Source of the DNA: Bacilli bacterium
GTDB taxonomy: Bacteria > Bacillota_I > Bacilli_A > RFN20 > CAG-826
Reading direction: 5' to 3'
DNA length: 64,000 nucleotides
Assembly (NCBI GenBank): GCA_017635465.1
Contig: JAGBLL010000036.1
Location: 4,590 to 68,589 of the forward strand
The translations under genes and the position numbers were made by a program. Below the pieces are notes generated by a model that ran no database searches, was not told where the DNA came from, and saw nothing but the letters and a program-made list of their open reading frames with translations. Of this stretch, positions 39,007-64,000 are shown piece by piece (positions within the stretch are counted from its first letter, which is position 1; each line of letters starts with the position of its first letter).

Positions 39007-39029
39007 AAACAAACAAATGAATAAACAAA

Positions 39030-39062: not shown

Positions 39063-39078
39063 TTAAAAGTTAATTTAA

Positions 39079-40347: not shown

Positions 40348-40374
40348 TTTTGTTTTTCTCCTCCTTAAATACTT

Positions 40375-43004: not shown

Positions 43005-43019
43005 GTTGAGGAAGAAAAG

Positions 43020-43694: not shown

Positions 43695-43746
43695 TCAACT
43701 TATTGATTAGTAGAAATTCCTTTCAGTTGAAAGAGGGAAAGAAGAC

Positions 43747-47580: not shown

Positions 47581-47596
47581 AAGGAGAAAAAAACTT

Positions 47597-48787
47597 ATGA
47601 GATGTGTTGGTGTGACATCTAGGGGCATCAGACTCCCCGTATTGAAAACTGGTGACGACTTAAGAAAGATTGTTGTCGAATCAGTTTTAAAAGCCTCTGA
47701 AAATGAAGGATTTAAATTTCATGATCGCGATGTTGTCGCAATCACCGAAAGTATCGTCGCCCGTTGCCAAGGCAATTACGCCTCTGTCGACAATATCGCT
47801 GACGATGTGAGAAAGAAAACCGGTGGCGATGAAGTAGCGGTCATTTTTCCTATTTTAAGTAGAAATAGATTCGCTATTCTCTTAAAAGGTATCGCTAGAG
47901 GTGTGAAGAAAGTTTACTTAATGCTTTCTTACCCAAGTGATGAAGTTGGTAATGCTTTAATTACCGCTGATCAAGTATACGAAGCTGGTATTAACCCATA
48001 CAGTGACGTCTTAACATTAGAAAAATATCGTGAATTATTTGGCTATAGAGTCCATGAATTCACTGGTGTTGACTATGTCGACTACTATAAAAAGTTAATT
48101 GAAGAACAAGGTGCAGAAGCTGTGATTATTTTTGCTAACCGCGCTGAAGCAATCTTAAATTACACAAAGAAAATCTTAACATGTGATATTCACACAAGAT
48201 TTGCTACAAAACGTTTATTAAAAGATAAAGGTGCTGAATTAGTTTTAGCCCTTGATGATATTTTAACCGCACCAGTTAATGGTTCTGGTTATAACGAAAA
48301 ATATGGTTTATTAGGTACAAATAAAGCCACTGAAGAAACTGTTAAATTATTCCCAAGAGATGGTCAATCTCTCGTTGAAGGTGTACAAGCTGATTTATTA
48401 GAAAAAACCGGCAAACACGTGGAAGTAATGGTGTATGGTGATGGTGCTTTTAAAGATCCACAAGGTAAGATTTGGGAATTAGCAGACCCAGTTGTTTCTC
48501 CATTCCACACAGTGGGCTTAAAAGGAACACCTAATGAATTAAAACTCAAATATTTAGCGGATAATGCCTATAAAGGCTTAAAAGGTAAAGAACTCGCTGA
48601 CGCGATTAAAGAAGATATCAAAGCTAAAGAAAAAGACCTCGTTGGTAAGATGGCTAGCGAAGGCACAACTCCAAGACAAATCACTGACTTATTAGGTTCT
48701 CTATGTGATTTAACAAGTGGTTCTGGTGATAAAGGTACACCAGTTGTCTTAATTCAAGGATATTTTGACAATTATGCCGACGAGTAA
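47597..48787 (+). CDS. CofE-like (F420-0:gamma-glutamyl ligase family) protein with large insertions. 397 aa.
   Basis: IRLPVLKTGDDLRKIV and HDRDVVAITESIVARCQG align to the CofE N-terminal motifs. YGDGAFKDPQGK aligns to the CofE nucleotide-binding region. Overlaps the upstream gene. Confidence 0.55.
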   Translation: MRCVGVTSRGIRLPVLKTGDDLRKIVVESVLKASENEGFKFHDRDVVAITESIVARCQGNYASVDNIADDVRKKTGGDEVAVIFPILSRNRFAILLKGIARGVKKVYLMLSYPSDEVGNALITADQVYEAGINPYSDVLTLEKYRELFGYRVHEFTGVDYVDYYKKLIEEQGAEAVIIFANRAEAILNYTKKILTCDIHTRFATKRLLKDKGAELVLALDDILTAPVNGSGYNEKYGLLGTNKATEETVKLFPRDGQSLVEGVQADLLEKTGKHVEVMVYGDGAFKDPQGKIWELADPVVSPFHTVGLKGTPNELKLKYLADNAYKGLKGKELADAIKEDIKAKEKDLVGKMASEGTTPRQITDLLGSLCDLTSGSGDKGTPVVLIQGYFDNYADE

Positions 48788-50270
48788 GAAGAAAATAGCA
48801 TTTGATAATAAAAAATATCTGAAAATCCAACGTCAGGAAATTTTAAAACGCATTAAATCCTTCGGTGGAAAACTTTACCTTGAATTCGGTGGTAAGTTAT
48901 TTGATGACTTCCACGCGAGTAGAGTTCTTCCAGGTTTTGAACCAGATTCAAAGCTCCAAATGTTACTCACATTAAAGGATGATGCCGAAATCGTTATGGC
49001 GGTCAACGCTAACGACATCAAAACAAATAAAGTTAGAAATGACTTAGGTATTACATATGAATCCGAAGTCGAAAGATTAATCGATGCTTATCAAGCAGCG
49101 GGTTTATATGTTAGTAGTGTGGTCTTCTGTTTCTATGAAGATAGCCCAGTATTAAAACAATTTGCCACGAAACTTAAAAAGAATGGCATTAAGGTTTATA
49201 AACACTACACAATCGCTGGTTATCCACATAACTTAGTCTCTGTTTTTGGTAGTGATGGCTTCGAAAAGAACGAATATGTTGAAACCACAAAACCATTAAT
49301 CGTTGTGACCGCGCCAGGACCAGGTTCAGGCAAGATGGCTGTCTGTTTAAGTCAGTTATATCATGATATGAATCGTGGTATTAAATCTGGTTACGCTAAA
49401 TATGAAACATTCCCAGTGTGGAATCTTCCACTTAGTCATCCAGTTAACTTAGCTTATGAAGCCGCAACAGTTGACTTAGCTGATGTTAATATGATTGACC
49501 CATACCATTTAGCGGCCTATGGCTTAACAACCACTAACTACAATAGAGATATTGAAACATTCCCATTATTAAAGACCATATTTGAAAAGATTTATGGTAC
49601 TTCCCCATATAAATCACCAACAGATATGGGCGTTAACATGGTTGGTTTCGCTATCGTCAACGATAAAGCGGCATGTGAGGCAAGTAAGCAAGAAATCATT
49701 CGTCGTTATTACCAAGCTAAAAAGAATGTCTACTTAGGTAAATTCGATGATGACACAATTGTCAAAGAAGAATCATTAATGAACGCAGTTGGTGTCACTA
49801 TTGCTGATCGACCAACAGTCGCGGCTTGCTTAGATAAAGCTAAAAAGTGCAAAGAAAGAGTGGTAGCCATTGAATTACCAAATGGCAAAATCATTACTGG
49901 TAAACGTTCAGTTCTTTTAGGCGCTCCAGCGGCAATGCTCCTTAATACACTTAAGTATTTAGGTAAGATTGACGATAGTATTCATTTAATTTCACCACAC
50001 GTGGTTACCCCAATGGCAGATCTTAAAACTGGTCCACTTAAGAAAGAAAACCCACGTATTAGAGCGGAAGAAATCTTGATTGCCTTAGCTATTCAAGCAA
50101 GTAGTAACCCACTCGCGGAATTAGCCTTAAAACAATTAGGCAAATTAAAAGGTTCTGAAGCGCATTGTTCGTGTTTACTTTCAGATGCTGATTTAAGAAC
50201 ATTAACCGCTTTAGGTATCAATGTCACTGAAGAACCTGTCGGGTACGCGCACAAACTATATTTTAAATAA
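48765..50270 (+). CDS. UPF0371/DUF1846-family protein, ~500 aa.
   Basis: Size and N-terminal region recalled as UPF0371 of Firmicutes. Overlaps the CofE-like stop. Confidence 0.5.
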   Translation: MTIMPTSKKKIAFDNKKYLKIQRQEILKRIKSFGGKLYLEFGGKLFDDFHASRVLPGFEPDSKLQMLLTLKDDAEIVMAVNANDIKTNKVRNDLGITYESEVERLIDAYQAAGLYVSSVVFCFYEDSPVLKQFATKLKKNGIKVYKHYTIAGYPHNLVSVFGSDGFEKNEYVETTKPLIVVTAPGPGSGKMAVCLSQLYHDMNRGIKSGYAKYETFPVWNLPLSHPVNLAYEAATVDLADVNMIDPYHLAAYGLTTTNYNRDIETFPLLKTIFEKIYGTSPYKSPTDMGVNMVGFAIVNDKAACEASKQEIIRRYYQAKKNVYLGKFDDDTIVKEESLMNAVGVTIADRPTVAACLDKAKKCKERVVAIELPNGKIITGKRSVLLGAPAAMLLNTLKYLGKIDDSIHLISPHVVTPMADLKTGPLKKENPRIRAEEILIALAIQASSNPLAELALKQLGKLKGSEAHCSCLLSDADLRTLTALGINVTEEPVGYAHKLYFK

Positions 50271-50305
50271 TTTATTGATTATATCTTAATTTATTTATTA
50301 AAGAG

Positions 50306-50336
50306 GAAAGAGCAAATCGCTCTTTTCTTTTTTCTA
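50306..50336 (+). terminator. Intrinsic terminator after the FAD-dehydrogenase/CofE-like/UPF0371 operon.
   Basis: AAAGAGC-aaat-CGCTCTTT hairpin followed by TCTTTTTTCT. Confidence 0.7.
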
Positions 50337-50451
50337 AATAACAAAATAGTCATATTTTTTATATATAAGGTAGATAATAATAGTATCGTAATCGTTTGTA
50401 TTCGTTAGAAACAAACAACATATTTTTTCATAATAAGAAAGGAATTTTTTC

Positions 50452-53400
50452 ATGAAGAAAAAGATTTTGCTCCCTGTTCTTCTTATGGGTATGGCTCTAC
50501 CTTTTGCCATTGGTGGCACATATAGTGGAGTTAATGCGGAATTTATTGGGGATTATTCCGCACAAGCCGCTTACACAAAAGCCGGTTCTGCTTTGAACGC
50601 TGAAATTTGTGATGAAGGCTTCGTCCTATTAAAGAACAAAGACAATTTCTTACCAATGCAAGCAGAAGGCGCGAAGATTTCTGTCGTTGGTAAGAGTTCA
50701 GTCAACCTCGTTAGAGGTGGTGGCGGTTCCGGTAGTGGCCGTGTTAACGGTGAAACCGCAATCGATTTACAACAATCGTTAGAAAAAGTTGGTTTCTCTT
50801 TAAACAAGAAATGCACAGATTTCTATAAGAGTGACTCTAAATCCGGTCCAGGCAGATCTAACGGCAATGATAACTGGAAGGGTAATTCTCAAGTGCAAAT
50901 TGGTGAAACACCAATGGCGATGCTTGAAAAAGAAAGTGGCTTAATTGATAGCTTCCAAGAATATGGTGACGCCGCAATTATGACCATCTCCCGTGAAGGT
51001 AGTGAAGGTTGTGACGTTAAAGCAATCGACGCTCGTGACTTTGACCCATCCAGTGGTAGACTCTCTGGTGTTACCGCTGGTGATGTAACAACAAAACACG
51101 CCTTACAATTATCCGATAACGAACAAGCCTTATTCGATTTAATTTGCGAAAAGTTTGAACACGTTATCATCCTTATCAACTCTGGTAATATCTTCCAATG
51201 TGACCAATTTGAAAATAATGATAAAGTTTCCGCGGTCATTTGGATGGGTAACCCAGGCGCGGTTGGTACAGGCGCAATCGGTCGTATTTTAACTGGTGAA
51301 GTCAATCCATCAGGTCGTACAGTCGATACATGGGCTCGTAATTTCAAAAATGACCCAACATATCAAAACTTCTCCGATAACTCTCAAACAAACGATAAGA
51401 TTATCGAAGTAACAGTTAATAACAAAAAGAAACAAACATATGCTTCTCAAGACACAATGTTCGCAGAAGATGGCGCTCCAATGCTCAGCTATGGTACTGA
51501 TAAAGCTTACAAAGATCACTCTTCTCCAAGATGGGTCAATGAAGAAGCAAAAGTGGTACAAGGTGGCTTAAATGGTGTTAAACCAGCTTCCTATGTCGCT
51601 TATGAAGAAGGCGTCTATGTTGACTATAGATACTATGAAACCCGTTATGCTGAATTAGCTAAAAAAGATAAAAAAGCCGCGGATGAATGGTATAAAGGTG
51701 ATGAAGGTGTCATCTATCCATTCGGTTATGGTTTAAGCTATACAACATTTAAACAAGAAATCGTTTCATCTAACGTTAAAGGTAAAACGCTTAAAAATGG
51801 TAATACCAACGTTGAAGTGAAAGTCAAAGTTAAAAATACTGGTGGCACCGCTGGTAAGGAAGTTGTCCAACTTTATTGGAAAGCTCCATATAAGCAAGGT
51901 GGTATTGAAAAAGCCAATAATGTCTTATGTGCTTTTGATAAGACAAGAATGTTGGATCCAGGTGAAGAACAAGTTCTTACTTTAACATTTAACACACAAG
52001 ATGTCGCTAACTATGACTTCGCTGATAAGAACAATAATGGCTTCTGTGGCTATGAATTAGATGGTGGTACATACTACATCTCATTAAACAAAAACGCTCA
52101 TGAAGAATTAGGTTCTATCAAGTTCTCTGTTGCTAAAGATGGCATCAAGTTTGAAACAGATCGCTATACAGGTCATGAAGTTAAGAACAGATTTACTGAC
52201 AGAGGCTTCTATAGCTGCTTACCAGGTGAAAATGATATCGGTTTTGAACAATTCTCACGTGCTGATGGTTTAGCAACAAAACCAACACACCCAACAATTG
52301 AAGATAGAAAAGTCAAAGTGGGTAGCCGTTATGAAGAATTCTTAACACACGAATTCACATTAAATGACTTAGAAGATGGTAAAGGTGAATATCTCCCATT
52401 AGAAATGCTCAAAACAAAAGAAGACATTGAAGCTTTAGGCTGGACACAAAGAGCAACAACCGCTAGTAAAGCTGAAAGTATCCAATTCAAAGATTTGGTC
52501 GGTCTTGATATGGATGATCCATTATGGGAACAAGCCATGGATCAAATGACATATACAGAATTATTAAGCTTCTCCTATGGTGGTGGTAACCACAATCCTG
52601 CTATCAGCAGAATGGACAAACCAGGCACAGGCGATAGCGATGGTCCTTCCCAATTCAAATACATCTGGTGGGCAGGCGCACCAATCGTGGCCGCGACATA
52701 CAACGTCGAATTAGCCAAGAGACAAGGCGAAATGGTCGGTATTGAAGCTCATATTTCTGGTACATATGGTTGGGCTGGTCCAGCTGTCAACTTACACCGT
52801 TCTCCATTCGGTGGCCGTAACTTCGAATACTACGCTGCTGATCCATTCTTAATGGGCCGTATGGCAGGTAGAGTCGTTGCTGGCGCAACTGATAAAGGTT
52901 TATATTGCTTCTTCAAGCACTTTGCGGTTAACGATCAAGAAAAGAACCGTGAAGGTACATCAGTTTTCTTAACTGAACAAGCTTTACGTGAAATTTATCT
53001 CAAACCATTCCAAATGGTTGTTCAAGAAGGTAAATCCATGGCCTTAATGTCATCCTATAACCGTTTAGGTAACATGGAAACCGCTGCTAGCTATCCATTA
53101 TTAACAGAAGTTCTCCGTGATGAATGGGGCTTCAAAGGTCACATCATTTCCGATATGACTCATAGCGGTAACTCCTCCGTTAACTATAAGTGCTATGAAT
53201 GCATCAATAACCGTATCTTAGCGGGTTGCAACCAACAATTAGATAGTAACGGTTTCAGAAGTGATATCACATGTAAGTGGGATGCTACCGCATTTGAAGG
53301 TAAAGGCGCTCCAGTATACACAAATAAAGCTGGTCAAACAGTTGAATGCTACACATGGTGGTACATGCTTAGAAAGAACGTTAAAGAATCAATGTGGACA

Positions 53401-53838
53401 TGCGCTAACTGTGGTGTTATGTCAAAGACATTCATCAAGAATGCTAACTTAACATTTAATGGTGTTGAACGCGAATATCTCGAAGTCAAAGTTGGTGAAG
53501 AAATTAACATCAAAGTTGATATGCCAGATGAATTAGCGGGTGCAACATTATCCATCGACCCAGTTACTCCATTACCAGAAGGTTTAGTCTTCGAAGACAA
53601 TACCATCAAAGGTAAATTAACTGATGGATGTAACGTCTTTATCCACGTCTTAGCGGAACTCAATGGTACAAAGACTGGTTCAAGTATCCAATTATTTGCA
53701 CCAAAAGTTGCTGCTCAAGCTCCTGCAAAAGGTGGTTGTGGTGGTGCTATTGAAGCCACATTAGTGGGTGTTGGCTTACTCGCTCTTGCGACCGCAATCG
53801 TCCTCATTGTTGATAAAAAAAGAAGAGTTAACGCCTAG
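50452..53838 (+). CDS. Secreted, C-terminally membrane-anchored family-3 glycoside hydrolase (paralog 1) with reversed domain order: GH3 C-domain, Fn3-like, GH3 catalytic barrel.
   Basis: Signal peptide. PGAVGTGAIGRILTGEVNPSGRTVDTWARNF is the GH3_C motif. YPFGYGLSYTTF...VKNTGGTAGKEVVQLY is the Fn3-like domain. KHFAVNDQE...SYNRLGN...GFKGHIISD carries the catalytic-barrel nucleophile region. C-terminal KGGCGG + TM + KKRR. Confidence 0.8.
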   Translation: MKKKILLPVLLMGMALPFAIGGTYSGVNAEFIGDYSAQAAYTKAGSALNAEICDEGFVLLKNKDNFLPMQAEGAKISVVGKSSVNLVRGGGGSGSGRVNGETAIDLQQSLEKVGFSLNKKCTDFYKSDSKSGPGRSNGNDNWKGNSQVQIGETPMAMLEKESGLIDSFQEYGDAAIMTISREGSEGCDVKAIDARDFDPSSGRLSGVTAGDVTTKHALQLSDNEQALFDLICEKFEHVIILINSGNIFQCDQFENNDKVSAVIWMGNPGAVGTGAIGRILTGEVNPSGRTVDTWARNFKNDPTYQNFSDNSQTNDKIIEVTVNNKKKQTYASQDTMFAEDGAPMLSYGTDKAYKDHSSPRWVNEEAKVVQGGLNGVKPASYVAYEEGVYVDYRYYETRYAELAKKDKKAADEWYKGDEGVIYPFGYGLSYTTFKQEIVSSNVKGKTLKNGNTNVEVKVKVKNTGGTAGKEVVQLYWKAPYKQGGIEKANNVLCAFDKTRMLDPGEEQVLTLTFNTQDVANYDFADKNNNGFCGYELDGGTYYISLNKNAHEELGSIKFSVAKDGIKFETDRYTGHEVKNRFTDRGFYSCLPGENDIGFEQFSRADGLATKPTHPTIEDRKVKVGSRYEEFLTHEFTLNDLEDGKGEYLPLEMLKTKEDIEALGWTQRATTASKAESIQFKDLVGLDMDDPLWEQAMDQMTYTELLSFSYGGGNHNPAISRMDKPGTGDSDGPSQFKYIWWAGAPIVAATYNVELAKRQGEMVGIEAHISGTYGWAGPAVNLHRSPFGGRNFEYYAADPFLMGRMAGRVVAGATDKGLYCFFKHFAVNDQEKNREGTSVFLTEQALREIYLKPFQMVVQEGKSMALMSSYNRLGNMETAASYPLLTEVLRDEWGFKGHIISDMTHSGNSSVNYKCYECINNRILAGCNQQLDSNGFRSDITCKWDATAFEGKGAPVYTNKAGQTVECYTWWYMLRKNVKESMWTCANCGVMSKTFIKNANLTFNGVEREYLEVKVGEEINIKVDMPDELAGATLSIDPVTPLPEGLVFEDNTIKGKLTDGCNVFIHVLAELNGTKTGSSIQLFAPKVAAQAPAKGGCGGAIEATLVGVGLLALATAIVLIVDKKRRVNA

Positions 53839-53857
53839 TTAACACCTCATAATAATC

Positions 53858-53886
53858 AAGGCCCTCTCTGAGGGTCTTTTTTATAA
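53858..53886 (+). terminator. Intrinsic terminator after GH3 paralog 1.
   Basis: GGCCCTC-tct-GAGGGTC hairpin followed by TTTTTTAT. Confidence 0.65.
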
Positions 53887-54113
53887 AATAGTTAGATTTA
53901 ATCATTAAAAAAACAAAAGCGTAATATGTTCAAATCTAAAAATTGTCTTACCTACACAATACATTTGTCATATAAAAAGAACCCTCTTCAATTTATATTG
54001 AATGTACTAATGCATTATGGATTCTAGAAGATAATGAATTGATAAAATCCAGTTTTGTACTCGTACTGAGGCAAAATAAAATAATGCAAACTTACTTTTG
54101 AAAGGAAAAACAT

Positions 54114-57100
54114 ATGAAGAAAGTATTGATTCCAGTTTTTCTTGCCGCGATGGCTTTACCATTATGTTTAAACAAAGGTGCTAACGCTGCGAACGCTGAA
54201 TTTATCGGTGAATTCACAGATAGAACCTCCTACATTAAACATGGTTCTGCAGTCAACGACCAATTAGCAGATGAAGGTTTCGTCCTATTAAAGAATGAAG
54301 GCAACTTCTTACCAATGGCCGCTGAAGGTAAAAAAGTTACTCTCGCTGGTAAGAGCTCAACAAAATTAGCCGGTGGTGGTGCTGGTTCAGGTGCTGGTTC
54401 CACATCTCAAGGTGTTACCGGTATTGACATGAAGAAGTCCTTAACAGACGTTGGCTTCGAAGTTAACCAAAAATTCATTGATTTCTACAACAGCGACACC
54501 AAATCAGGTCCAGGTAGAACAAACGGTAACGATGGTTGGAAAGGTAACTCCCAAGTTCAAATCGGTGAAACCCCAATTTCCATGTATGAAAAAGAATCTG
54601 GTTTATTGGAAACACTCGATGAATACAAAGATGCCGCTATCCAAGTTATCACCCGTGAAGGTTCCGAAGGTTGTGACGTTAAAGCAATTGACGCTCGTGA
54701 CTTCGACCCAGCTAGTGGCAAAACTGCTCCATCCGGTGTTGATGTTAATGAAGTTTCAGACAGACACGCTCTTGAATTATCCAAGAATGAAGAAGCTTTA
54801 TTACAAGAATTAGAAAAACACACAGACAACGTTATTATCGTTATCAACTCATCCAATATCTTCGAATGCGCTAAACTCGAAAACGATCCAAAAGTTAAAG
54901 CCATTCTCTGGATTGGTAACCCAGGTGACCGTGGTGCGGGTGCCGTCGGTAGAATTCTCTCCGGTCAAGTCAACCCATCTGGTCGTACAGTTGATACATG
55001 GGCTCGTGATTTCACACAAGACCCAACATATCAAAACTTCTCCGATAACGCTCAAACAAATGAAAACATCATTGAAGTTACCGTTAACGGTAAGAAGAAA
55101 AACACAAATGCTGCTCAAGACACAATGTTCGCAGCAGATGGTTCCCCAATGCTCAGCTTTGGTACAGATAAAGCTTATAAAGACCACAATGCTCCAAGAT
55201 GGTTAAACGCTGATGCTAAAGTTGTCCAAGGTGGTATCAATGGTGTTAAACCAGCCGCTTACGTTTCATACGAAGAAGGTATCTATGTTGACTACCGTTA
55301 CTATGAAACAAAATATGCCGATATGGCTGCTAAAGATAAGAAAGCCGCTGATGCTTGGTATAACGGTCAAGACGAAAAGAAGGGTGGCGTTATCTACCCA
55401 TTCGGTTATGGCTTAAGCTATACAACATTCGAACAAAAGATCGTTAAAGCCAACATTAAGAAAGGTGGCAAGATCAATGAAAAGAACGAAGTTATCGCTG
55501 TGACTGTCGAAGTTAAGAACACTGGTAAAGTCGCTGGTAAACAAGCCGTTCAACTTTATTGGAAAGCCCCATACAAAGCTGGTGAAATTGAAAAAGCTGA
55601 TCACGTCTTATGTGCATTTGGTAAATCACCAATGCTCGAACCAGGTGAAAAAGCAAACGTCCACTTATCATTCTATTTACAAGATGTTGCTAACTACGAC
55701 TTCACAGACGCAAATAAGAATGGCTTCAAGGGTTACGAATTAGATGCAGGTAAATATTCCTTATTCTTAGGTAAATCCGCCCACGAAGCATACGAAAACT
55801 TCAACTTCTCCGTTGAAAAGAACATCAAATACGAAAACGATCGTTTCTCCGGCCACAAAGTTGAAAACAGATTCACTGACAATGGCTTCTATAGCTCAAT
55901 GCCAGGTGAAAAAGATATCGAATTCACACAAATGAGCCGTGCTGATTTCGATAAGACATTCCCAACTCACCCAACCTTCGAAGATAGAAAAGTCAAAGAA
56001 GGTAGCAGATTTGAAGAATTCTTAACAACTGAATTCTCACTCGCTGATTTCGAAGCTGGCAATAACGAATACGTTCCTGCCGCTGCTCGTAAAGATGCAA
56101 GCGTTGCTGCTAACTGGAAACAAGGTTCTAAAGACACATCCCACAAGATCATTGACTTAAAGGATACCGAATTAGATGATCCAAGATGGGAAGAACTCGT
56201 CAACCAAATCTCTTGGGCTGATATGCTCAAAGTTGTCGAAACAAATAGAATGTCCTCACAAGCTATCTCCAGCGTTGGTAAAGCTGGCTTCTCTGAAGGT
56301 GACGGTCCACAAAAATTCAACATTATGTGGTGGGTCTCTTCTCCAATTATCGCCGCTACATTCAACCAAGACTTAGCTCATAAACAAGGTGAATGCGTTG
56401 GTATGGAATCTCAAATCAGTGGTAAATCTGGTTGGTGGGGTCCAGCTGTTAATACACACCGTTCTCCATTCGGTGGTAGAAACTTCGAATACTATGCCGC
56501 TGATCCATTCTTAATGGGCCGTATGGCTGCTCAAGTCGTCGGTGCCGCTACAGATAGAGGCGTCTACGCATACTTCAAACACTTTGCTGTTAACGATCAA
56601 GAAAAGAACCGTGAATCCGGTATCTCATTCTTAACAGAACAAGCATTACGTGAAATCTACTTAAAGTCCTTCCAAATGGTCTTTGAAGAAGGTAAATCCA
56701 TTGGTGTCATGGGTTCCTATAACCGTATGGGCTTAATGGAAACAGCCGCTAACTACAACTTATTAACAGAAGTTCTCCGTGGTGAATGGGGCTTCAAGGG
56801 TTCTGTCTTATCCGATATGACCCACAGTGGTAATGGTTCCGTTAACTTCAACTGCTACGAATGTGTCACAAACCGTGTCTTATCCGGTTGTAACGCTCAA
56901 TTAGACTCTGGTGGTTTCTCTGGCGCTTCCCAAGCAAAATGGGATAATACACAAAATGCTCCATTATATACCGCTAAAGATGGTTCTAAACAAATCTCTT
57001 ACTCTTACTGGTATGCTGTGAGACAATGCACAAAAGAACATATGTTCATGGCTTCACGTTGTACAAAGACACATACCGATGCTGGTATTAAGATGATTAA

Positions 57101-57461
57101 ACCTGATGGTGAAGAATACGTCAATTTCGAAGCTCGTAAAGCATTCGAATATGCCTTACCAGAAGGTAACTTCAGACTCAACCAACGCGTTGATTTACCA
57201 CGTGGTGTTAAATTCGAAAACAACAAACTCTCTGGTCAATTTGATTGGGAAGGTGTTTACCACTTAGACTTCATCAAAGTTGATGATGCAGGTAAAGCCG
57301 CTGGTGCATTCAAATTAATCGTTACCGCAACAACAGGCAATGCTTTAGGCAAAGGTGGTTGTGGTGGTGATATCGCCGCTGTCGGTGCTATCATTGGCTT
57401 AATCGCTCTCGCTGGTGCAGGTTTATTACTTGTCTCCATCCGCAAAAAACAAAGAGCGTAA
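54114..57461 (+). CDS. GH3 glycosidase paralog 2, with the same reversed domain order and C-terminal KGGCGG + TM + RKKQR anchor.
   Basis: Domain motifs collinear with paralog 1: GNPGDRGAGAVGRILSGQVNPSGRTVDTWARDF, YPFGYGLSYTTF, KHFAVNDQEKNRE, GFKGSVLSD. Confidence 0.8.
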   Translation: MKKVLIPVFLAAMALPLCLNKGANAANAEFIGEFTDRTSYIKHGSAVNDQLADEGFVLLKNEGNFLPMAAEGKKVTLAGKSSTKLAGGGAGSGAGSTSQGVTGIDMKKSLTDVGFEVNQKFIDFYNSDTKSGPGRTNGNDGWKGNSQVQIGETPISMYEKESGLLETLDEYKDAAIQVITREGSEGCDVKAIDARDFDPASGKTAPSGVDVNEVSDRHALELSKNEEALLQELEKHTDNVIIVINSSNIFECAKLENDPKVKAILWIGNPGDRGAGAVGRILSGQVNPSGRTVDTWARDFTQDPTYQNFSDNAQTNENIIEVTVNGKKKNTNAAQDTMFAADGSPMLSFGTDKAYKDHNAPRWLNADAKVVQGGINGVKPAAYVSYEEGIYVDYRYYETKYADMAAKDKKAADAWYNGQDEKKGGVIYPFGYGLSYTTFEQKIVKANIKKGGKINEKNEVIAVTVEVKNTGKVAGKQAVQLYWKAPYKAGEIEKADHVLCAFGKSPMLEPGEKANVHLSFYLQDVANYDFTDANKNGFKGYELDAGKYSLFLGKSAHEAYENFNFSVEKNIKYENDRFSGHKVENRFTDNGFYSSMPGEKDIEFTQMSRADFDKTFPTHPTFEDRKVKEGSRFEEFLTTEFSLADFEAGNNEYVPAAARKDASVAANWKQGSKDTSHKIIDLKDTELDDPRWEELVNQISWADMLKVVETNRMSSQAISSVGKAGFSEGDGPQKFNIMWWVSSPIIAATFNQDLAHKQGECVGMESQISGKSGWWGPAVNTHRSPFGGRNFEYYAADPFLMGRMAAQVVGAATDRGVYAYFKHFAVNDQEKNRESGISFLTEQALREIYLKSFQMVFEEGKSIGVMGSYNRMGLMETAANYNLLTEVLRGEWGFKGSVLSDMTHSGNGSVNFNCYECVTNRVLSGCNAQLDSGGFSGASQAKWDNTQNAPLYTAKDGSKQISYSYWYAVRQCTKEHMFMASRCTKTHTDAGIKMIKPDGEEYVNFEARKAFEYALPEGNFRLNQRVDLPRGVKFENNKLSGQFDWEGVYHLDFIKVDDAGKAAGAFKLIVTATTGNALGKGGCGGDIAAVGAIIGLIALAGAGLLLVSIRKKQRA

Positions 57462-57493
57462 TCTTAGAATTAGATTCTAACTAAAACATGCAA

Positions 57494-57528
57494 AGCTGCT
57501 AGGGCCGTTTGCGCCCTAGCAGTTTAAT
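57494..57528 (+). terminator. Stem-loop terminator candidate after GH3 paralog 2 (weak U-tail).
   Basis: GCTGCTAGGGC-cgtttgc-GCCCTAGCAG followed by TTTAAT. Confidence 0.45.
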
Positions 57529-57701
57529 GCATATACTACGTATACACGCACAAACAATAGTGATATGCTATAGGTAACTAAAATTGTTAATAAAGCATCA
57601 TCTTAAATCGTCCGTATTAAGATGGCGCTTGATTATAAATCCCTAGAAAGGAGAATATTATTCGGCAGTTAAGTCTAGGGTTACCCGGATAATGAATTAT
57701 T

Positions 57702-58739
57702 ATGAAAAAGAACAAATTATTTTTCTTAGGTATGATGGTTGCTACACTCGCTTTAGCTGGTTGTGGTAAGGGTGGCGATAGCGCTGCTTCTAAATCATCT
57801 AAAAAAGATTCCAGTGTTGATGATAGCGAACCACAAATCGTCTTACCTGATTACAAAGTCGTGATTGACTACAATGATGGCACAACCGCCAAGATTGAAA
57901 AGACCATTCACCATGGTGATCCAATCGAAAAACCAACAGATCCAACAGCTCCAGCTGGTAAGAAATTCTATGGTTGGCAAAACGTTAAAAACGGTGGCCA
58001 AATTTGGGATTTCCAAGCCGAAGATCTTAAAGGCGTTTTTGAAGACGTTGAATTAAAACCATTATTCGTCGATGCTTCTTTACCAGTTCAATCTCTTGAA
58101 GCTGAATTATGCCCAGCTATTACCGAAGACCACGGTGGTCAAGGTATGGAAGGTGCGACATATTCCGGTGGTGCTAAAGGTAAACAATTAATTAACCGTG
58201 CTTATGACGGTGAATACGCTGCTTCTGGTGCTTACTGGCAAGATGACAGTGGTACAGTCCGCTATGCTAAAGATAGTGATCCAGCAGATGAAGTCTTCGG
58301 TGGTTATGTCCACTTCATGTATGCTAAAGGTGATACATTAACATGGAAAGTTAGTAGTGATGCTGCTGCTGAAAACGTTACCATCTTCATGAGATTAGCT
58401 GGTGAATATGCTAAACCAGATGAACAAACAGGTGAAAAGAAATTCACTGTTACTGATGATGAATTCCAAATCAAAGTCAATGGTACCGCTCTTAAATACG
58501 GTAAAGTCACTCTCCACAATATTCCTGAAACTGGTAAATTCACTACATTCCAAGATTACTATGTGAGTGCTACAGTCTCCTTAAAGGCTGGTGAAAACGT
58601 TATTCAAACAGTCGTTAACAACGACATTAACTTATTCTCCACAATTGCCGCTGCTGCTCCATGTGTTGATAGTATTAAAGTTTTATCCACAAGTACACTT
58701 ACTTGGGCAGATGCAAAAATTAGCCAATTAGAAAGATAA
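57702..58739 (+). CDS. Lipoprotein with a Listeria-Bacteroides (Flg_new) repeat and a C-terminal beta-sandwich carbohydrate-binding-module-like domain.
   Basis: Lipobox LAGC. YKVVIDYNDGTTAKIEKTIHHGDPIEKPTDPTAPAGKKFYGWQ matches the Flg_new repeat. Stop is 4 nt before GH3 paralog 3. Confidence 0.55.
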   Translation: MKKNKLFFLGMMVATLALAGCGKGGDSAASKSSKKDSSVDDSEPQIVLPDYKVVIDYNDGTTAKIEKTIHHGDPIEKPTDPTAPAGKKFYGWQNVKNGGQIWDFQAEDLKGVFEDVELKPLFVDASLPVQSLEAELCPAITEDHGGQGMEGATYSGGAKGKQLINRAYDGEYAASGAYWQDDSGTVRYAKDSDPADEVFGGYVHFMYAKGDTLTWKVSSDAAAENVTIFMRLAGEYAKPDEQTGEKKFTVTDDEFQIKVNGTALKYGKVTLHNIPETGKFTTFQDYYVSATVSLKAGENVIQTVVNNDINLFSTIAAAAPCVDSIKVLSTSTLTWADAKISQLER

Positions 58740-58743
58740 GATT

Positions 58744-61620
58744 ATGGGTATCGGTAAAAAATTACTAAAGCCTCGCGTTATTGCTTGGGGCGTAACAACA
58801 ATCGTTATGGCTGGCGTTTTAATCGCCGCTAACATTGTTTGTAATGGTTACCTTGCTTCCTTATTAAACGGCACATTCTTCGGTGGCCCACAACCTATCG
58901 TCGATAAAGATGATAAAGGCATTCCATTTGAACAAGACTTTGCCTCTAAAAAAGAAGCCTTCAATTATGGTAACGAAGTTACACAAAGAATTTGTGAAGA
59001 AGGTATGGTTCTTCTTAAAAATGAAAACAATACCCTTCCATTACAAAAACAAGCCAAAATTACAGTCTTTGGCAGAAACTCAGTTCAATTAGTTTATGGT
59101 GGTTCTGGTTCCGCTGCTCCAGGTGGTAGTGATAAAGACAGAAAGACCATTGAACAATCGTTAGAAAAAGCTGGTTTCAAAGTCAATCCAGAAATGAGAA
59201 AGTTCTACGAAAAGCAATCTGGTCGTAGTGCTAACCCTGCTATGGAACACGGCGAAGGTATCCCAACTTTAAAAACTGGTGAAACAGAAATTAGCAAATA
59301 TACTGACGCTGTTAAAAATTCTTATAAGGATTATCAAGATGCCGCTCTTGTCGTCTTCTCACGTATCGCTGGTGAAAACTGGGACTTACCACGTGAAGCA
59401 GCTGATAACGCCTCTCGTCATTATCTTGAATTAGATAATAATGAAAGAGATTTATTAAGACACATTGCCGCTTCTGGTTTCCAAAAAATCATTGTTTGTA
59501 TCAATGGTTCTAACTATATTGACCTTGGCTTCTTAAAGCAAGAAACCAACGCTACTGATTATAACGATTTCGGTAAAAACGTTAATGCCGCTATTAACAT
59601 TGGTTCTCCAGGTGAAAACGGTATTATGGCGTTAGGTAGACTTCTCTCTGGTGAAGTCAACCCATCCGGTCATACAGTTGATACTGTTTATACAAATTAT
59701 TCCAAAGACCCAACATGGGAAAACTTTGGTGGTAACTTCTCTGATGGTGGCGATAACTACTTAACAATGGACGGTAAAGCCACTGCCTACTACACTGTCG
59801 ACTATGAAGAAAACATCTACATGGGTTATAGATATTACGAAACCCGTGGTGCGGTTGATGGTGAAGATTGGTACAAAGCTAATGTCGTTTACCCATTTGG
59901 CTATGGCTTAAGTTACACTAAATTCAGTCAAGAAATCGCTAACAAAGCCGCTCTTGAGGGTGCTGCTTTAGAAAAAGACAAGACATTCGATGTCGAAGTC
60001 AAAGTTACCAATACTGGTGATGTCGCTGGTAAACAAGTTATCCAACTTTACGCCAGTGCACCATATACCGCTAATGGTATCGAAAAAGCTCATAAAGTCT
60101 TAGTGGGCTTTGGCAAAACAAAAGAATTAGCTAAAGGCGAATCTGAAACATTAACAATTACTGTTGATCCATATCACTTCGCTAGCTTCGATTCTAAAGA
60201 CAAAAATAACAATGGCTTCAAAGGTTATGAATTAGAAAAAGGCGATTACAAATTCTACGTTGCTGAAAACGCACACGATAGCGCCTTATACTTCACAAAG
60301 AATTTAGCCGCTGATGCTAAATTTGAAAAAGATCCATTAACAGGATACGAAGTTAAACCATTATTCGATGAAGTCACAAGTGCGATGAAAGAAAGCTTAT
60401 CTCGCGCTGACTTTGCTGGTACATTCCCACATAGAATTACCGACGATGAAAGAAAGATCAATGATGAGTTCCTTGCTAAATTAAAATCCAAAGCATCTAC
60501 AAACGATGAAGAATACTCTACTGTTCCAGCAATGGGCAAAGATAGAGGTTCCGTGATGCTTAAGGACTTAGCAGGAAAGAACTATGATGATCCATTATGG
60601 GAAACATTCCTTGATCAGTTAACTTTCAAAGAAATGCTTACCTTATTCAATGAAGGCTGTTATTCCACAGCCGCTATCCTTGATCTTGGTATTCCAAGAA
60701 CAACATCATGTGACGGTCCTACAGGCTTAGTTGCCTTCTTAGGTGACCCAGCAGTTTATGGTACATGTTACTATCAATCCGAATGCTTATTAGCCCAAAC
60801 CTATAGCATTGACCTTGCTAAAGAACAAGCTAAAGCCATCGGTAATGAATGCTTAATCGGTAGTGAAAAGACTGGCTTATCATACCCAGGTTGGTATGCT
60901 CCAGGCGTCAACTTACACCGTTCTCCATTCTCTGGCCGTAACACTGAATACTATTCAGAAGATCCATTCTTAAATGGTAAATTCGCTGGCACAGTCATCA
61001 AAGGCGTGCAAGAAAAAGGCGTTTACGTCAACATCAAACACTTTGCCTTAAATGATCAAGAAACACACAGATCCGCAAACGGTATCGCCACATGGTGTGA
61101 TGAACAAGCAATGCGTGAACTTTACTTAAAAGCCTTCGAAATCGGCGTTAAAGAAGGTAAAGCACACGGTTTGATGACATCCTTCAACCGTATCGGTACT
61201 GAATGGGCTGGTGGTTCCTATCGCTTAGTAACAACCATCCTTAGAAAAGAATGGGGCTTCCAAGGCTCAGTTATCTGCGACTTCCATACAGACTTCTATA
61301 TGGACAGTAAGCAAATGTTATATGCTGGTGGTGACATCAACATGGTCAGCTTAGAAGACCGTAAATTAACAACCGAAAAGAAATATGGTACTCCAACAGT
61401 TTCTGAAAAGAACGCTAAGGACGTGACCTTATTAAGAAAAGCCGCTCATAATAACTTATTCGCGATTGCTAATAGTAACGCGATGAAAGCTAATATTAAG
61501 GGCTATTTACCAGCTAAGTGGCAAATCTTGTTATACTGCGTCACTGGTGGTGTCGCTCTCGGCTTAGCGGTTTGGGGCTTCTTCGCAATCTTTACTACAT
61601 TACGTAAAAAAGAAGACTAA
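58744..61620 (+). CDS. GH3 glycosidase paralog 3, with an N-terminal signal anchor and a C-terminal TM anchor. Same reversed domain order.
   Basis: GSPGENGIMALGRLLSGEVNPSGHTVDTVYTNY (GH3_C), YPFGYGLSYTKF (Fn3-like), KHFALNDQETHR...SFNRIG...GFQGSVICD (barrel). N-terminal TM IAWGVTTIVMAGVLIAANIV. C-terminal TM plus RKKED. Confidence 0.8.
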   Translation: MGIGKKLLKPRVIAWGVTTIVMAGVLIAANIVCNGYLASLLNGTFFGGPQPIVDKDDKGIPFEQDFASKKEAFNYGNEVTQRICEEGMVLLKNENNTLPLQKQAKITVFGRNSVQLVYGGSGSAAPGGSDKDRKTIEQSLEKAGFKVNPEMRKFYEKQSGRSANPAMEHGEGIPTLKTGETEISKYTDAVKNSYKDYQDAALVVFSRIAGENWDLPREAADNASRHYLELDNNERDLLRHIAASGFQKIIVCINGSNYIDLGFLKQETNATDYNDFGKNVNAAINIGSPGENGIMALGRLLSGEVNPSGHTVDTVYTNYSKDPTWENFGGNFSDGGDNYLTMDGKATAYYTVDYEENIYMGYRYYETRGAVDGEDWYKANVVYPFGYGLSYTKFSQEIANKAALEGAALEKDKTFDVEVKVTNTGDVAGKQVIQLYASAPYTANGIEKAHKVLVGFGKTKELAKGESETLTITVDPYHFASFDSKDKNNNGFKGYELEKGDYKFYVAENAHDSALYFTKNLAADAKFEKDPLTGYEVKPLFDEVTSAMKESLSRADFAGTFPHRITDDERKINDEFLAKLKSKASTNDEEYSTVPAMGKDRGSVMLKDLAGKNYDDPLWETFLDQLTFKEMLTLFNEGCYSTAAILDLGIPRTTSCDGPTGLVAFLGDPAVYGTCYYQSECLLAQTYSIDLAKEQAKAIGNECLIGSEKTGLSYPGWYAPGVNLHRSPFSGRNTEYYSEDPFLNGKFAGTVIKGVQEKGVYVNIKHFALNDQETHRSANGIATWCDEQAMRELYLKAFEIGVKEGKAHGLMTSFNRIGTEWAGGSYRLVTTILRKEWGFQGSVICDFHTDFYMDSKQMLYAGGDINMVSLEDRKLTTEKKYGTPTVSEKNAKDVTLLRKAAHNNLFAIANSNAMKANIKGYLPAKWQILLYCVTGGVALGLAVWGFFAIFTTLRKKED

Positions 61621-61640
61621 TAATCACTAACAAAACAAAT

Positions 61641-61670
61641 AGCGAATCTCGTTTGAGGTTCGCTTTTTTG
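61641..61670 (+). terminator. Intrinsic terminator after the GH3 cluster.
   Basis: AGCGAA...TTCGCT hairpin followed by TTTTTTGT. Confidence 0.65.
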
Positions 61671-61738
61671 TATGACTTTATCAATGAAATTTGCATTTTT
61701 TATTAAGTTGTTTTATCTTAATAGTGAGGTAACTCGAT

Positions 61739-63304
61739 ATGAAAAGCATAAAATCGCTTCCAATTTTATTTCTTTGTGCCACTCTTTTTCCTTTAGTGGG
61801 CTGCCAAAATAAGTCAGCAAAATACGAGAACAAAAAAATAGTTGACTGGTATCATGATAATTATTCGCCACTAGGGCCAACTACTTTTGAGTTGAAAGAA
61901 TTTGATAATCCTAAATTCAATATCGATGTGTCAAAAAACTTAACTCAAGAAAATGGTGCTTTTAAAGCAAAAGGCGTTTATGCAGTTTATGTTTATGACA
62001 TTAATAAAGATGGATATCGTGAATTATGCATTTCCGCTACTGATGAGAACAATACCGATTACTCGTATATCTATGATTTAAAAAATAATGAATATCTTTA
62101 TTACATTAAGGATTGTGATGTTCAAAATGTTTGCCGTCACTATCATTTCTATTTAGATAATATCGCGCTTGCTATTTCAAAAGATAAAAATGATTCAACT
62201 GGTGCGGTTTCTAGTACTTATTCAAAGGGTCTCATCCTCTATTCTAAAGAAAGAGGCGTTTATACAAGTTGGATAAATAAATATACAATTACAGATTGTA
62301 AATATTCTTTAACCACATTAAATCCTAATGACACCCCAGTTAATGTTAAACGTGAAAAATATTTAACTACAGGTGATTTAGATGACCATTCTTTATATTG
62401 TTTAAAAGCGGAAATCGATGACACTTTCACTCAAGATTATTCAAGCATGTTCTCTTTAACGTATCGTTCGTTAGGTAAAGATAACATTAAAGTTATTGAT
62501 AAAGGCTATGAGAATGGTACATATAAGATGGTTTTCTATTTTGCTGGACAAAATGGAAAGGCTGATACATCTGATTATGAAGTGCAATTTTCTGGTTATA
62601 ACGAAAACTATAGATTTAATATCGCTAGTGAAGGCACAAGCCAAACTGTCGGTGATTTATTAGGCGCATCTAATAAGATTAAAGCCGTTAGTGATGCTTC
62701 TAAAGTAGTCGTAGAAGAAAACCAATATTATGAATATGGTCGTTTTTATGGCCTACGTTTTATTGACGAAATAACTAGAGACGAGAGAAAAGAATACGCA
62801 GTTAATTATTTAGATAGCCTTGCGTATGAGGTAAATAATGTGTTCTATAACACAAATATAGAGTCTAGTGTGCGTTTAAATTATTACGATAAGAGTGGCA
62901 CTAAATATTCTGTTGAAATAAACAATGGCCGCTATTTCATGAAGGATGGAAAATGCTATGCTTCATTTGAAAACTTCGACATGAAATCTGTTGTTCCAGC
63001 ATCGTTTTTGCGTAATACTAAAATTGGCTTTTTCAAAGAAATGAAAAATGTCGAGATTGAAGATTTAGACAATAGCACTAAAGTCAGCTTTAATAATTTA
63101 GACTTAATCGAAGCAACATGGTACAGTTCTTCAAGCGAACATCCATATCCTCCAAAAGGTACTCATTTTAAATATAGAATCAATACAGATATAAAAAATA
63201 AAGGGTTCTATATCGTTGACGCAAATACATTTATTTCTGATTACGATGGTGTAGAAGTGTATGTGATTGAATCAGGATACAACTTCGCTAACTTGTTTCA
63301 ATAA
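61739..63304 (+). CDS. Lipoprotein of unknown function.
   Basis: Lipobox LVGC. 521 aa, Asn/Tyr/Lys-rich. No recognisable family. Confidence 0.5.
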   Translation: MKSIKSLPILFLCATLFPLVGCQNKSAKYENKKIVDWYHDNYSPLGPTTFELKEFDNPKFNIDVSKNLTQENGAFKAKGVYAVYVYDINKDGYRELCISATDENNTDYSYIYDLKNNEYLYYIKDCDVQNVCRHYHFYLDNIALAISKDKNDSTGAVSSTYSKGLILYSKERGVYTSWINKYTITDCKYSLTTLNPNDTPVNVKREKYLTTGDLDDHSLYCLKAEIDDTFTQDYSSMFSLTYRSLGKDNIKVIDKGYENGTYKMVFYFAGQNGKADTSDYEVQFSGYNENYRFNIASEGTSQTVGDLLGASNKIKAVSDASKVVVEENQYYEYGRFYGLRFIDEITRDERKEYAVNYLDSLAYEVNNVFYNTNIESSVRLNYYDKSGTKYSVEINNGRYFMKDGKCYASFENFDMKSVVPASFLRNTKIGFFKEMKNVEIEDLDNSTKVSFNNLDLIEATWYSSSSEHPYPPKGTHFKYRINTDIKNKGFYIVDANTFISDYDGVEVYVIESGYNFANLFQ

Positions 63305-63316
63305 TAGATGTCCAAT

Positions 63317-63952
63317 CTATTGATTAGCCTCTTCGGAGGCTTTTTTCATTTCTATCTTTTTATCGAAATAACGATATATAAAGAAGAAAGCGATTCCACC
63401 GATAACCATTAATATGGACCAGAACTGTGATGGTGTTAATCCTGGAATAAAAGCGCCTCTTTCATCGTTTCTAACAAATTCAATTAATAATCTCCAAACG
63501 CCGTATCCGATAAGATAGACACCCATATTGTATTTAAAATGGAATTTAAAATATAAAACAATCATCACAGCACTTATTAAAAACAAGAAAACAGCCTCAA
63601 ATAACTGCGTAGGGACTTCTTTATGTAATTCCCCAGGAAATTGCACGCCAAACCACATATCGGTCTCTATACCGCCACAACAGCCGGCAAAAAAGCAACC
63701 TATACGACCAAAGCCATGGGCTAATGTAATTGATATAGGGGCAAATCTTAATAATTCCCAGACACCTTTATTCATATCAGACTTAAAGATGTTCTTTTCT
63801 TTTAGTCTTGGATTAATAACGTAAACGTATAAGAAATATAAACCAAGGTAGACAATAACTCCACCTAATAGACCTCCTAAGAAGGTCATCTTACCGGTAA
63901 ACTGGAATCCTCCACTTGGATTAGCGATAAAGTCATAAATTGATTGCACCAA
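63317..63952 (-). CDS. lgt: Prolipoprotein diacylglyceryl transferase. The N-terminus probably runs past the window end.
   Basis: Lgt signature HGFGRIGCFFAGCCGG and downstream FPxQLFEA. Confidence 0.75.
   Translation of the reverse strand: MVQSIYDFIANPSGGFQFTGKMTFLGGLLGGVIVYLGLYFLYVYVINPRLKEKNIFKSDMNKGVWELLRFAPISITLAHGFGRIGCFFAGCCGGIETDMWFGVQFPGELHKEVPTQLFEAVFLFLISAVMIVLYFKFHFKYNMGVYLIGYGVWRLLIEFVRNDERGAFIPGLTPSQFWSILMVIGGIAFFFIYRYFDKKIEMKKASEEANQ
63324..63348 (+). terminator. Intrinsic terminator for the unknown lipoprotein gene. It is embedded in the 3' coding end of the convergent lgt.
   Basis: AGCCTC-ttcg-GAGGCT hairpin followed by TTTTTTCATT. Confidence 0.6.
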
Positions 63953-64000
63953 TGAGCCAAATAATAGACCTAAAGCAATAGCAAAGAAACCAATAATTAA

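Follow-up and report, generated by a model that had tools for sequence, protein, structure and literature searches.

Three anciently diverged, domain-permuted GH3 glycosidases form a probable cell-surface module of rumen Bacilli, and two carry a candidate C-terminal sorting signal

What do three large glycosidase genes, set in a row with a lipoprotein gene, do for an uncultured rumen bacterium? The genes lie in a 64,000 bp stretch of the 'Bacilli bacterium' assembly GCA_017635465.1 (contig JAGBLL010000036.1, positions 4,590 to 68,589, forward strand), here called the window. An earlier note, made from the letters of the sequence, had placed three tandem glycoside hydrolase family 3 (GH3) paralogs and a lipoprotein at positions 50,452 to 61,620. 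Open reading frames (ORFs) were found at exactly these coordinates. We conclude, with a probability of about 0.85, that this 'Bacilli bacterium' has here a conserved module for trimming glycans at the cell surface, comprising three anciently diverged GH3 enzymes of the GlyA1 type. The genes are as follows (aa, amino acids; TM, transmembrane).

50452..53838, + strand: GH3-1, 1128 aa, permuted GH3; signal peptide aa 1-29; Pfam domains Glyco_hydro_3_C (sandwich) 58-323 (6e-27), Fn3-like 470-543 (4e-9) and Glyco_hydro_3 barrel 746-930 (1e-23); linker of ~200 aa between the Fn3-like domain and barrel; beta-sandwich domain at ~994-1083; Cys-containing tail at the end; acid/base Glu185, codon 51004-51006; nucleophile Asp901, codon 53152-53154.
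54114..57461, + strand: GH3-2, 1115 aa, architecture as GH3-1; sandwich 57-311 (4e-29), Fn3-like 478-556 (1.5e-6), barrel 746-930 (2e-19); Glu185, Asp901.
57702..58739, + strand: lipoprotein, 345 aa, lipobox LAG-C21; stop codon 4 nt ahead of the GH3-3 start.
58744..61620, + strand: GH3-3, 958 aa; N-terminal TM signal-anchor at aa ~13-35; sandwich 88-391 (7e-25), Fn3-like 432-509 (5e-13), barrel 648-872 (6e-24); Glu211, Asp846; C-terminal TM helix followed by RKKED, without a G-C-G-G motif.

The three paralogs share a permuted domain order

The earlier note proposed that each paralog begins with the sandwich domain, continues with the Fn3-like domain and ends with the catalytic barrel. Pfam gives exactly this order in all three proteins. 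For comparison, GH3-1 was aligned with the canonical GH3 enzyme Bgl3B of T. neapolitana (2X40) using HMMER. The two have the same three domains and catalytic residues, and the match (E 3.5e-65) is nearly as strong as those to permuted structures. However, Bgl3B is ordered barrel, sandwich, Fn3, and the alignment breaks into three pieces. Barrel residues 745-926 match Bgl3B 86-264, sandwich residues 51-305 match 330-558, and Fn3 residues 381-522 match 569-683. Because these pieces come in rotated order, they demonstrate the circular permutation of domain order directly.

The earlier note had also suggested comparing structure models. We searched known structures with an AlphaFold2 (AF2) model of GH3-1 (mean pLDDT 79.9, pTM 0.84) using Foldseek. 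Full-length matches were obtained only for the permuted enzymes 5WUG and 5K6L-O (~1010-1165 columns, E ~1e-42, target-normalised TM-score 0.65-0.76), whereas canonical GH3 structures aligned over only ~525-620 columns. The best match was the permuted Paenibacillus barengoltzii beta-glucosidase (5WUG/5WVP; E 1.2e-42). GlyA1 (PDB 5K6L-5K6O) matched with a target-normalised TM-score of 0.74-0.76, but at an identity of only ~21-22% in the structural alignment. In sequence searches of solved structures, 5WUG was likewise the best match of all three paralogs (E 6e-67 for GH3-1). GH3-3 aligns colinearly from aa 82 to 847 with 5WUG 42-748 (E 9e-83) and from aa 78 to 848 with GlyA1 (5K6L) 15-711 (E 6.5e-75).

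The enzymes belong to a known GH3 subfamily

GlyA1, a beta-glucosidase/beta-xylosidase from a rumen metagenome, is the founder of the permuted ABS-FLD-ABB subfamily. Its description in 2016 defined 'a novel subfamily of GH3 with permuted domain topology' and counted 328 ABS_FLD_ABB sequences, tied to digestive-tract microbes (PMC5104943). BrGH3A is a further characterised permuted enzyme (PMC11233000). The three paralogs have the GlyA1 domain order and are colinear over their full length with 5K6L and 5WUG. They also share with GlyA1 the equivalent catalytic Glu and Asp and an extra C-terminal domain past the barrel, and in both cases the source is rumen Firmicutes/Bacilli. Differences from GlyA1 include large insertions in the sandwich domain of GH3-1 and GH3-2 (aa ~186-215 and ~310-383), signal peptides on these same two proteins and C-terminal membrane anchors on all three.

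More than 7,800 relatives of GH3-1 occur in a collection of 5.8 billion proteins. Among the 120 relatives listed, every non-truncated one has the three domains in the order sandwich, Fn3, barrel. Relatives with a named source all come from metagenome-assembled genomes (MAGs) of rumen or goat origin labelled 'Bacilli bacterium' or 'Erysipelotrichaceae'. Given the colinear alignment with solved structures and the >7,800 relatives, the enzyme type is already known, and GH3-1, GH3-2 and GH3-3 are additional members of it. Hence, the suggestion that the permuted set is unusual did not survive, the subfamily having been known with crystal structures since 2016. Conceptually, the enzymes add little; they extend the permuted subfamily to membrane-tethered forms.

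Catalytic residues are conserved

Each paralog has a PF00933 barrel with the nucleophile Asp and a PF01915 sandwich with the acid/base Glu. The catalytic motifs cited by the earlier note are present, as KHFAVNDQE or KHFALNDQE and, around the nucleophile, as WGFKGHIISD(901)M in GH3-1, WGFKGSVLSD(901)M in GH3-2 and WGFQGSVICD(846)F in GH3-3. Asp901, Asp901 and Asp846 align with TnBgl3B Asp242 and GlyA1 Asp709. The acid/base residues Glu185, Glu185 and Glu211 are found within R-E-G-S-E-G-C-D or R-I-A-G-E-N-W-D. They align with Bgl3B Glu458 and GlyA1 Glu143, the Glu of the SGEGYD or AGEDKD motif in TnBgl3B, 5WUG and GlyA1. In a 40-sequence alignment E185 and D901 are invariant, as are the subsite -1 equivalents D730, R789, K822, H823, R833 and Y869. 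Roles of catalytic and subsite residues were taken from PMC11233000 and PMC5104943.

These residues bear on a different reading of the proteins, either as NagZ-like N-acetylglucosaminidases of cell-wall recycling or as catalytically dead binding proteins. The former would agree with a weak match to an NCBIfam beta-N-acetylhexosaminidase model (E 2e-4), although its score was 20.7 bits against a cutoff of 207. However, the acid/base Glu comes from the sandwich domain, as in GH3 enzymes of the glucosidase/xylosidase type, and the nearest structural and sequence neighbours are beta-glucosidases. Invariance of all catalytic and subsite residues also speaks against this reading. We consider either form of it very improbable.

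Export, anchoring and the accessory lipoprotein

Classical signal peptides are evident in GH3-1 (MKKK...VNA|EF) and GH3-2 (MKK...ANA|EF). The proposal that every paralog has one therefore stands for these two proteins and fails for GH3-3, whose N-terminus is a hydrophobic signal-anchor in which no cleavage site is obvious. All three have a predicted C-terminal TM helix, as the earlier note described, and a basic tail after it; in GH3-1 and GH3-2 the helix is followed by KKRR or RKK. By comparison, the permuted BrGH3A is without a signal peptide and was proposed to be intracellular (PMC11233000). Sortase families had no match among window ORFs of at least 150 aa, and no LPXTG motif occurs on the C-terminal TM tails listed for the window. 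The other large surface proteins encoded here, of 1069 and 521 aa, are lipoproteins. Surface display by membrane anchoring fits this organism.

The 345-aa lipoprotein has the signal MKKNKLFFLGMMVATLALAG-C21, which matches the lipobox [LVI][ASTVI][GAS]-C, and Cys21 is invariant in 35 homologues. Briefly, a Ser/Lys-rich tether of ~25 aa is followed by an InlB B-repeat (Flg_new) at 51-107 and by a beta-sandwich at ~125-345 resembling carbohydrate-binding modules (CBMs) of families 35 and 6. The repeat was identified by Pfam (1.4e-7) and by a PDB profile match to 2Y5P (1.3e-7), and its fold also matches. In the AF2 model (pLDDT 87.4) the beta-sandwich is confident and the tether has low confidence. 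Foldseek gave the CBM35 structures 2W46, 2W3J, 2W1W and 2VZP as top matches (E 1.5e-5 to 3e-4), with CBM35 and CBM6 structures in the range E 1.5e-5 to 5e-4 (probability 1.0). The fold is thus like that of CBM35/CBM6 modules (2W46, 2W1W, 2CDP), but the domain is larger (~220 versus ~130 aa). Since no CBM sequence model of Pfam or NCBIfam matched the protein, we call the domain CBM35/6-like and not a family member. With its lipobox, Flg_new repeat and CBM-like fold, the protein is as the earlier note had it: a CBM/Flg_new lipoprotein directly upstream of the third paralog.

How might these parts work together? A surface glycan-degradation module, as proposed earlier, is the most reasonable function. 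By homology, each paralog would be a retaining exo-glycosidase with its active site at the interface of barrel and sandwich. The nucleophile Asp (901/901/846) would be supplied by the C-terminal barrel and the acid/base Glu (185/185/211) by the N-terminal sandwich, as in GlyA1. GH3-1 and GH3-2 are predicted to leave the cell by the Sec route, using their signal peptides, and to stay tethered to the membrane's outer face through the C-terminal TM helix. GH3-3 would be anchored at each end by a TM helix. The lipoprotein, probably co-transcribed, presumably captures glycan at the surface with its CBM35/6-like domain on a flexible tether. The enzymes would then trim non-reducing-end sugars from what are probably plant-derived oligosaccharides; beta-glucosides, beta-xylosides and alpha-L-arabinosides are plausible substrates. 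Products would be imported by transporters encoded elsewhere, a link to uptake that we assume.

Several observations weigh against this interpretation or limit its detail. There is no sugar transporter or regulator beside the cluster within the window. The signal-peptide and TM calls derive from inspection and the AF2 helix. The residue after the nucleophile is Met in GH3-1 and GH3-2 and Phe in GH3-3; in GlyA1 it is Trp710, which helps to build subsite -1 (PMC5104943, PMC11233000). Hence, the sugar preference of the window enzymes is possibly unlike that of characterised members. Finally, the NCBIfam equivalog models for specific GH3 activities all score far below cutoff, the best being alpha-L-arabinopyranosidase with 232-268 bits against a cutoff of 1300. 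Substrate assignment by this route therefore failed, and specificity is not assignable from these models.

An old cluster with a conserved gene order

GH3-1 shares 56% identity with GH3-2, and GH3-3 shares 34-36% with either. Related contigs, given here by L numbers, were compared with the window. In L001, from the Erysipelotrichaceae MAG RUG12224, the three paralogs are matched one to one by orthologs (76, 74 and 66% identity), accompanied by the 345-aa lipoprotein (51%) and the 521-aa lipoprotein (34%). Recent tandem duplication or triplication is excluded by the low identity between paralogs and the one-to-one orthologs. The order GH3, GH3, Flg_new lipoprotein, GH3 is kept in no fewer than four further contigs from MAGs of rumen or gut Bacilli (L001, L002, L005 and L007), of which L002 is from a goat MAG (59% identity). 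Hence, a triplicated set with a binding lipoprotein is less singular than the earlier note supposed. Rumen Bacilli keep a conserved surface module of three enzymes and a CBM-like lipoprotein, which is useful for annotation of fibre degradation and as an enzyme source. Contig L005 (4542-23384) has six permuted GH3 genes in a row over ~19 kb, beside an AraC-family regulator and a CotH-domain protein. These six genes indicate a lineage-wide expansion of the permuted subfamily.

Terminator-like hairpins divide the cluster.

53858..53878, + strand: terminator-like hairpin with T-run, 3' of GH3-1.
61641..61664, + strand: terminator-like hairpin, 3' of GH3-3.

No such hairpin was found between GH3-2, the 345-aa lipoprotein gene and GH3-3. 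Together with the 4-nt gap between lipoprotein gene and GH3-3, this suggests two transcription units, with GH3-1 as a separate one.

Base composition bears on the question of a foreign origin. The earlier note judged the region, by eye, somewhat more GC-rich than the housekeeping genes. Cluster genes do have a GC content of 0.40-0.42 (mean 0.406) against 0.354 +/- 0.029 for the other 43 ORFs, but the rise is modest and does not point to a foreign origin. Most of the excess is at codon position 2 (0.396 versus 0.329 in other ORFs), a consequence of Gly/Ala-rich proteins. GC at codon position 3 is only ~1 standard deviation up (0.324 versus 0.277 +/- 0.046), and housekeeping genes at 39079-43694 are as GC-rich as the cluster or more so. 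As an indicator of horizontal transfer, GC content was therefore mostly rejected.

Could the cluster nonetheless be an acquired or relocated island and not an old resident of the region? Beyond its GC content, one argument is contig L009. There, an unrelated 413-aa gene stands in place of the GH3 cluster and the 521-aa lipoprotein gene (L009 10001-15597 compared with window 47570-64000). The backbone on either side is kept without GH3 genes: phosphoribosyl pyrophosphate (PRPP) synthase, FAD protein, F420-ligase-like and DUF1846 genes, then lgt, CPBP and Na/Pi cotransporter genes. Hence, the module is an old insertion or a deletion occurred at the site, and the pattern would be accounted for just as well if the L009 lineage had lost the genes. 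The context of the cluster also differs in L002, L005 and L008. However, in L001 and L007 the cluster occupies the same site at 74-76% protein identity, so any insertion must be old. No integrase, transposase or tRNA is among the annotated flanking ORFs, where neither a tRNA scan nor a direct-repeat search was made. On balance, we find an acquired or relocated island unlikely.

Two of the enzymes end in an invariant cysteine motif

The most distinctive feature of the cluster, the invariant G-C-G-G motif of GH3-1 and GH3-2, was missed by the earlier note.

53716..53835, + strand: GH3-1 tail, QAPAKGG-C-GG (Cys1096, codon 53737-53739), TM helix, DKKRRVNA.
57339..57458, + strand: GH3-2 tail, NALGKGG-C-GG (Cys1083, codon 57360-57362), TM helix, RKKQRA.

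In the AF2 model of GH3-1, residues 1089-1098 are disordered and 1099-1127 form a helix. About 100 of the 120 closest GH3 homologues listed end in KK-G-C-[G/F]-G, then ~6 residues, and finally a TM helix with KKR[RK]xxx. In 83 of these tailed proteins, the distance from the Cys to the C-terminus is exactly 33 residues. Another clade contributes some 15 orthologs with a plain, Cys-less TM+KKKK tail; such tails occur, for example, in GCA_024408335.1.

We built a 40-column profile from 36 tails and searched 1.84 billion representative proteins (E<=1e-3). The profile had 174 representative matches (best E 1.5e-13) in proteins of 53-1516 aa. Of the 150 matches listed, 149 reach the C-terminus or stop a few residues short of it; in P0357 the match covers aa 538-572 of 617. 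G-C-[G/F]-G occurs in 148 of the 150, with its Cys 29-34 residues from the end, and only 13 are GH3-like. In these 148 proteins, Gly precedes the Cys in 143, G or F follows it, and Gly is at position +2 in 141. The consensus is KKGCGGSIxATSxILSxLALAGxGLLxxKKRKxx. Bearers of the tail are diverse. Sixty full-length proteins represent 26 Pfam families, none of them GH3, including Endonuclease_1 (17), Big_2 (15), Big_3 (14), Flg_new, PA with Peptidase_S8, GDSL/CE2 and others. An N-terminal signal-like segment was found in 57 of 68 full-length bearers and a lipobox in one. All named bearers are 'Bacilli bacterium' MAG proteins.

Isolated tails were then compared with curated models (NCBIfam release 20 and Pfam; hmmscan, E<=10), and none scored above cutoff. 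Below cutoff, LPXTG_anchor, PTPA-CTERM, Loki-CTERM and Gram_pos_anchor matched the TM and basic part only. The curated MYXO-, JDVT-, Synerg- and CGP-CTERM models do not recognise the tail. The tail was therefore not assigned to a known CTERM or anchor type. In our literature search we found no description of such a Cys-tail in Bacilli, nor of the CPBP-lgt operon considered below. The tail joins an invariant-Cys motif, a TM helix and a basic cluster at the extreme C-terminus, and it recurs in one restricted lineage on many secreted proteins that are unrelated to each other. This combination suggests the signature of a lineage-specific C-terminal sorting signal, most like the Cys-containing CTERM class.

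Besides the GH3 proteins, no tail bearer is encoded in the window or at the L001-L003 loci. At L004 (3986-11484), G-C-G-G tails are found on the products of two neighbouring genes, one an Endonuclease_1/Big_2 protein of 831 aa, the other an S8 subtilase of 1447 aa that includes a PA domain. A third endonuclease nearby (501 aa) is without the tail, and no CPBP gene is present at L004.

A CPBP protease gene overlaps lgt beyond the window end

If the tail is processed, which proteins might act on it? No CPBP protease, sortase or rhomboid was found among the 47 window ORFs of at least 150 aa. A CPBP gene lies just outside. It was located on contig L011, which agrees with the window at every position over 12,262 bp and extends past its end (lgt-CPBP region L011 11579-13169).

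63317..64000, - strand: lgt (prolipoprotein diacylglyceryl transferase), of which the window holds only the 3' part; on L011 the gene reaches window-equivalent 64192, and the CPBP gene overlaps its start.
64137-64907 (window-equivalent): CPBP/Rce1-like (PF02517) protease, 256 aa, MBO6261296.1, 'CPBP family intramembrane metalloprotease'.

The overlapping pair is also present in L007, L008, L009, L010, L012 and L013, with CPBP identity down to ~45-50%, and is kept whether or not the GH3 cluster adjoins. The motifs EExxxR, FxxxH and HxxxD/N are invariant in 20 CPBP sequences. Five NCBIfam models match the protein weakly, the top two being MrtJ (23.8 bits, cutoff 75) and Mrt_core (21.5 bits, cutoff 100). 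By these curated thresholds, the scores being far under the Mrt cutoffs, assignment as a myxosortase was rejected.

There is a precedent for processing of such tails. Myxosortases, members of the CPBP family, process the Cys-containing MYXO-, JDVT-, Synerg- and CGP-CTERM signals (bioRxiv 10.1101/2023.06.07.544157). Cleavage of MYXO-CTERM by MrtX depends on the Cys, and Lgt has been proposed as the lipidating enzyme (PMC11980579; bioRxiv 10.1101/2023.06.07.544157). The window system resembles these in its Gly-rich invariant-Cys motif, TM helix and basic cluster at the extreme C-terminus, in its use by unrelated secreted proteins of one lineage, and in a PF02517 protease with intact motifs in the same genome. 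It differs from MYXO-CTERM in that its host belongs to a monoderm, possibly wall-less lineage of Bacilli, with no outer membrane or type II secretion step. Furthermore, the basic cluster of the tail is rich in Lys and not Arg. Unlike the myxosortases, the CPBP protein encoded next to the window is short, falls under the Mrt cutoffs and has a gene translationally coupled to lgt.

Hence, the tails of GH3-1 and GH3-2 could be cleavable, Cys-dependent sorting signals and not plain TM anchors. The Cys just outside the membrane would be lipidated, possibly by Lgt. CPBP would then remove the TM helix and basic tail, leaving the enzymes lipid-anchored at the C-terminus. In favour are the tripartite G-C-[G/F]-G architecture in most listed GH3 homologues, the almost exclusively C-terminal position of the listed profile matches, few of them GH3-like, and the variety of Pfam families, whose members largely have signal-like N-termini and all but one no lipobox. 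The restriction of named bearers to 'Bacilli bacterium' points the same way. So do the overlap of CPBP with the start of lgt, seen in the contig of the window itself and at six other loci, the invariant catalytic motifs, the appearance of two myxosortase-family models at the top of the weak matches and the MYXO-CTERM/MrtX precedent. However, any CPBP protein might score as this one does against the Mrt models. The pairing with lgt may instead serve the maturation of lipoproteins at their N-terminus. In S. aureus, the CPBP-like LnsB takes part in N-acylation of lipoproteins (PMC7387801), but the catalytic motifs retained by the CPBP discussed here are lost from LnsB. The tail is without a lipobox and has the opposite topology to Lgt substrates. 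No tail-bearing genes adjoin CPBP in L008-L010. Lastly, some GH3 orthologs have Cys-less TM+KKKK tails, which implies that a TM anchor alone is enough for function. Weighing these points, we put cleavable signals on GH3-1 and GH3-2 at just short of even odds.

That the two tails are part of a truly processed sorting system is slightly more doubtful, as judged from sequence comparisons. We propose tentatively, with the balance somewhat against us, a previously undescribed Cys-containing sorting signal on many secreted proteins of rumen and gut Bacilli, for which the coupled CPBP-Lgt pair would be the cognate machinery. Its users would possibly, on odds a little below even, include nucleases, subtilases, Ig-repeat adhesins and esterases as well as these glycosidases. 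If true, myxosortase-like systems would extend to monoderms for the first time, and there would be genomic evidence for lipidation of a C-terminal Cys by Lgt, the open step of MYXO-CTERM processing; the fixed CPBP-lgt operon is a candidate for this step in Cys-containing C-terminal sorting signals. Processing would give Gram-positive or wall-less Bacilli a sortase-independent C-terminal lipid anchor. It would account for display of dozens of surface enzymes in these uncultured organisms. In either case, the G-C-G-G tail and its possible link to CPBP-lgt are a newer element than the GH3 enzymes or their arrangement.

Other genes of the window

Between the cluster and lgt lies a further gene.

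61739..63304, + strand: 521-aa predicted lipoprotein, lipobox LVG-C22; own terminator at 63326-63341.

No Pfam or NCBIfam model matches this protein. In L001 it is kept at the equivalent position with 34% identity, whereas the GH3 proteins retain 66-76%, so it diverges fast. It possibly belongs to the GH3 module. A larger lipoprotein of 1069 aa is encoded at 31144-34353 (- strand), with lipobox LVG-C, a long Ser-rich tether and Big_3 repeats. No family matches its final ~750 aa; it is probably a surface adhesin or binding protein.

The chromosomal origin region is at 8331-21424, where gyrA, gyrB, recF, dnaN and dnaA (- strand) face yidC, jag/khpB and mnmE (+ strand). GC skew changes sign over the 702-bp spacer between dnaA and yidC (17248-17949), which is likely oriC, and the GH3 cluster is ~33 kb away. 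Nucleotide-salvage genes occupy 28209-31044 and 34459-44676. They encode four phosphoribosyltransferase-domain proteins, uracil phosphoribosyltransferase, PRPP synthetase, a xanthine/uracil permease, a Bmp/PnrA-type ABC nucleoside transporter and a protein with a GMP-synthase C-domain. So dense a salvage set fits a reduced, host-associated Bacilli genome. The tailed, secreted Endonuclease_1 proteins of relatives may feed this salvage route.

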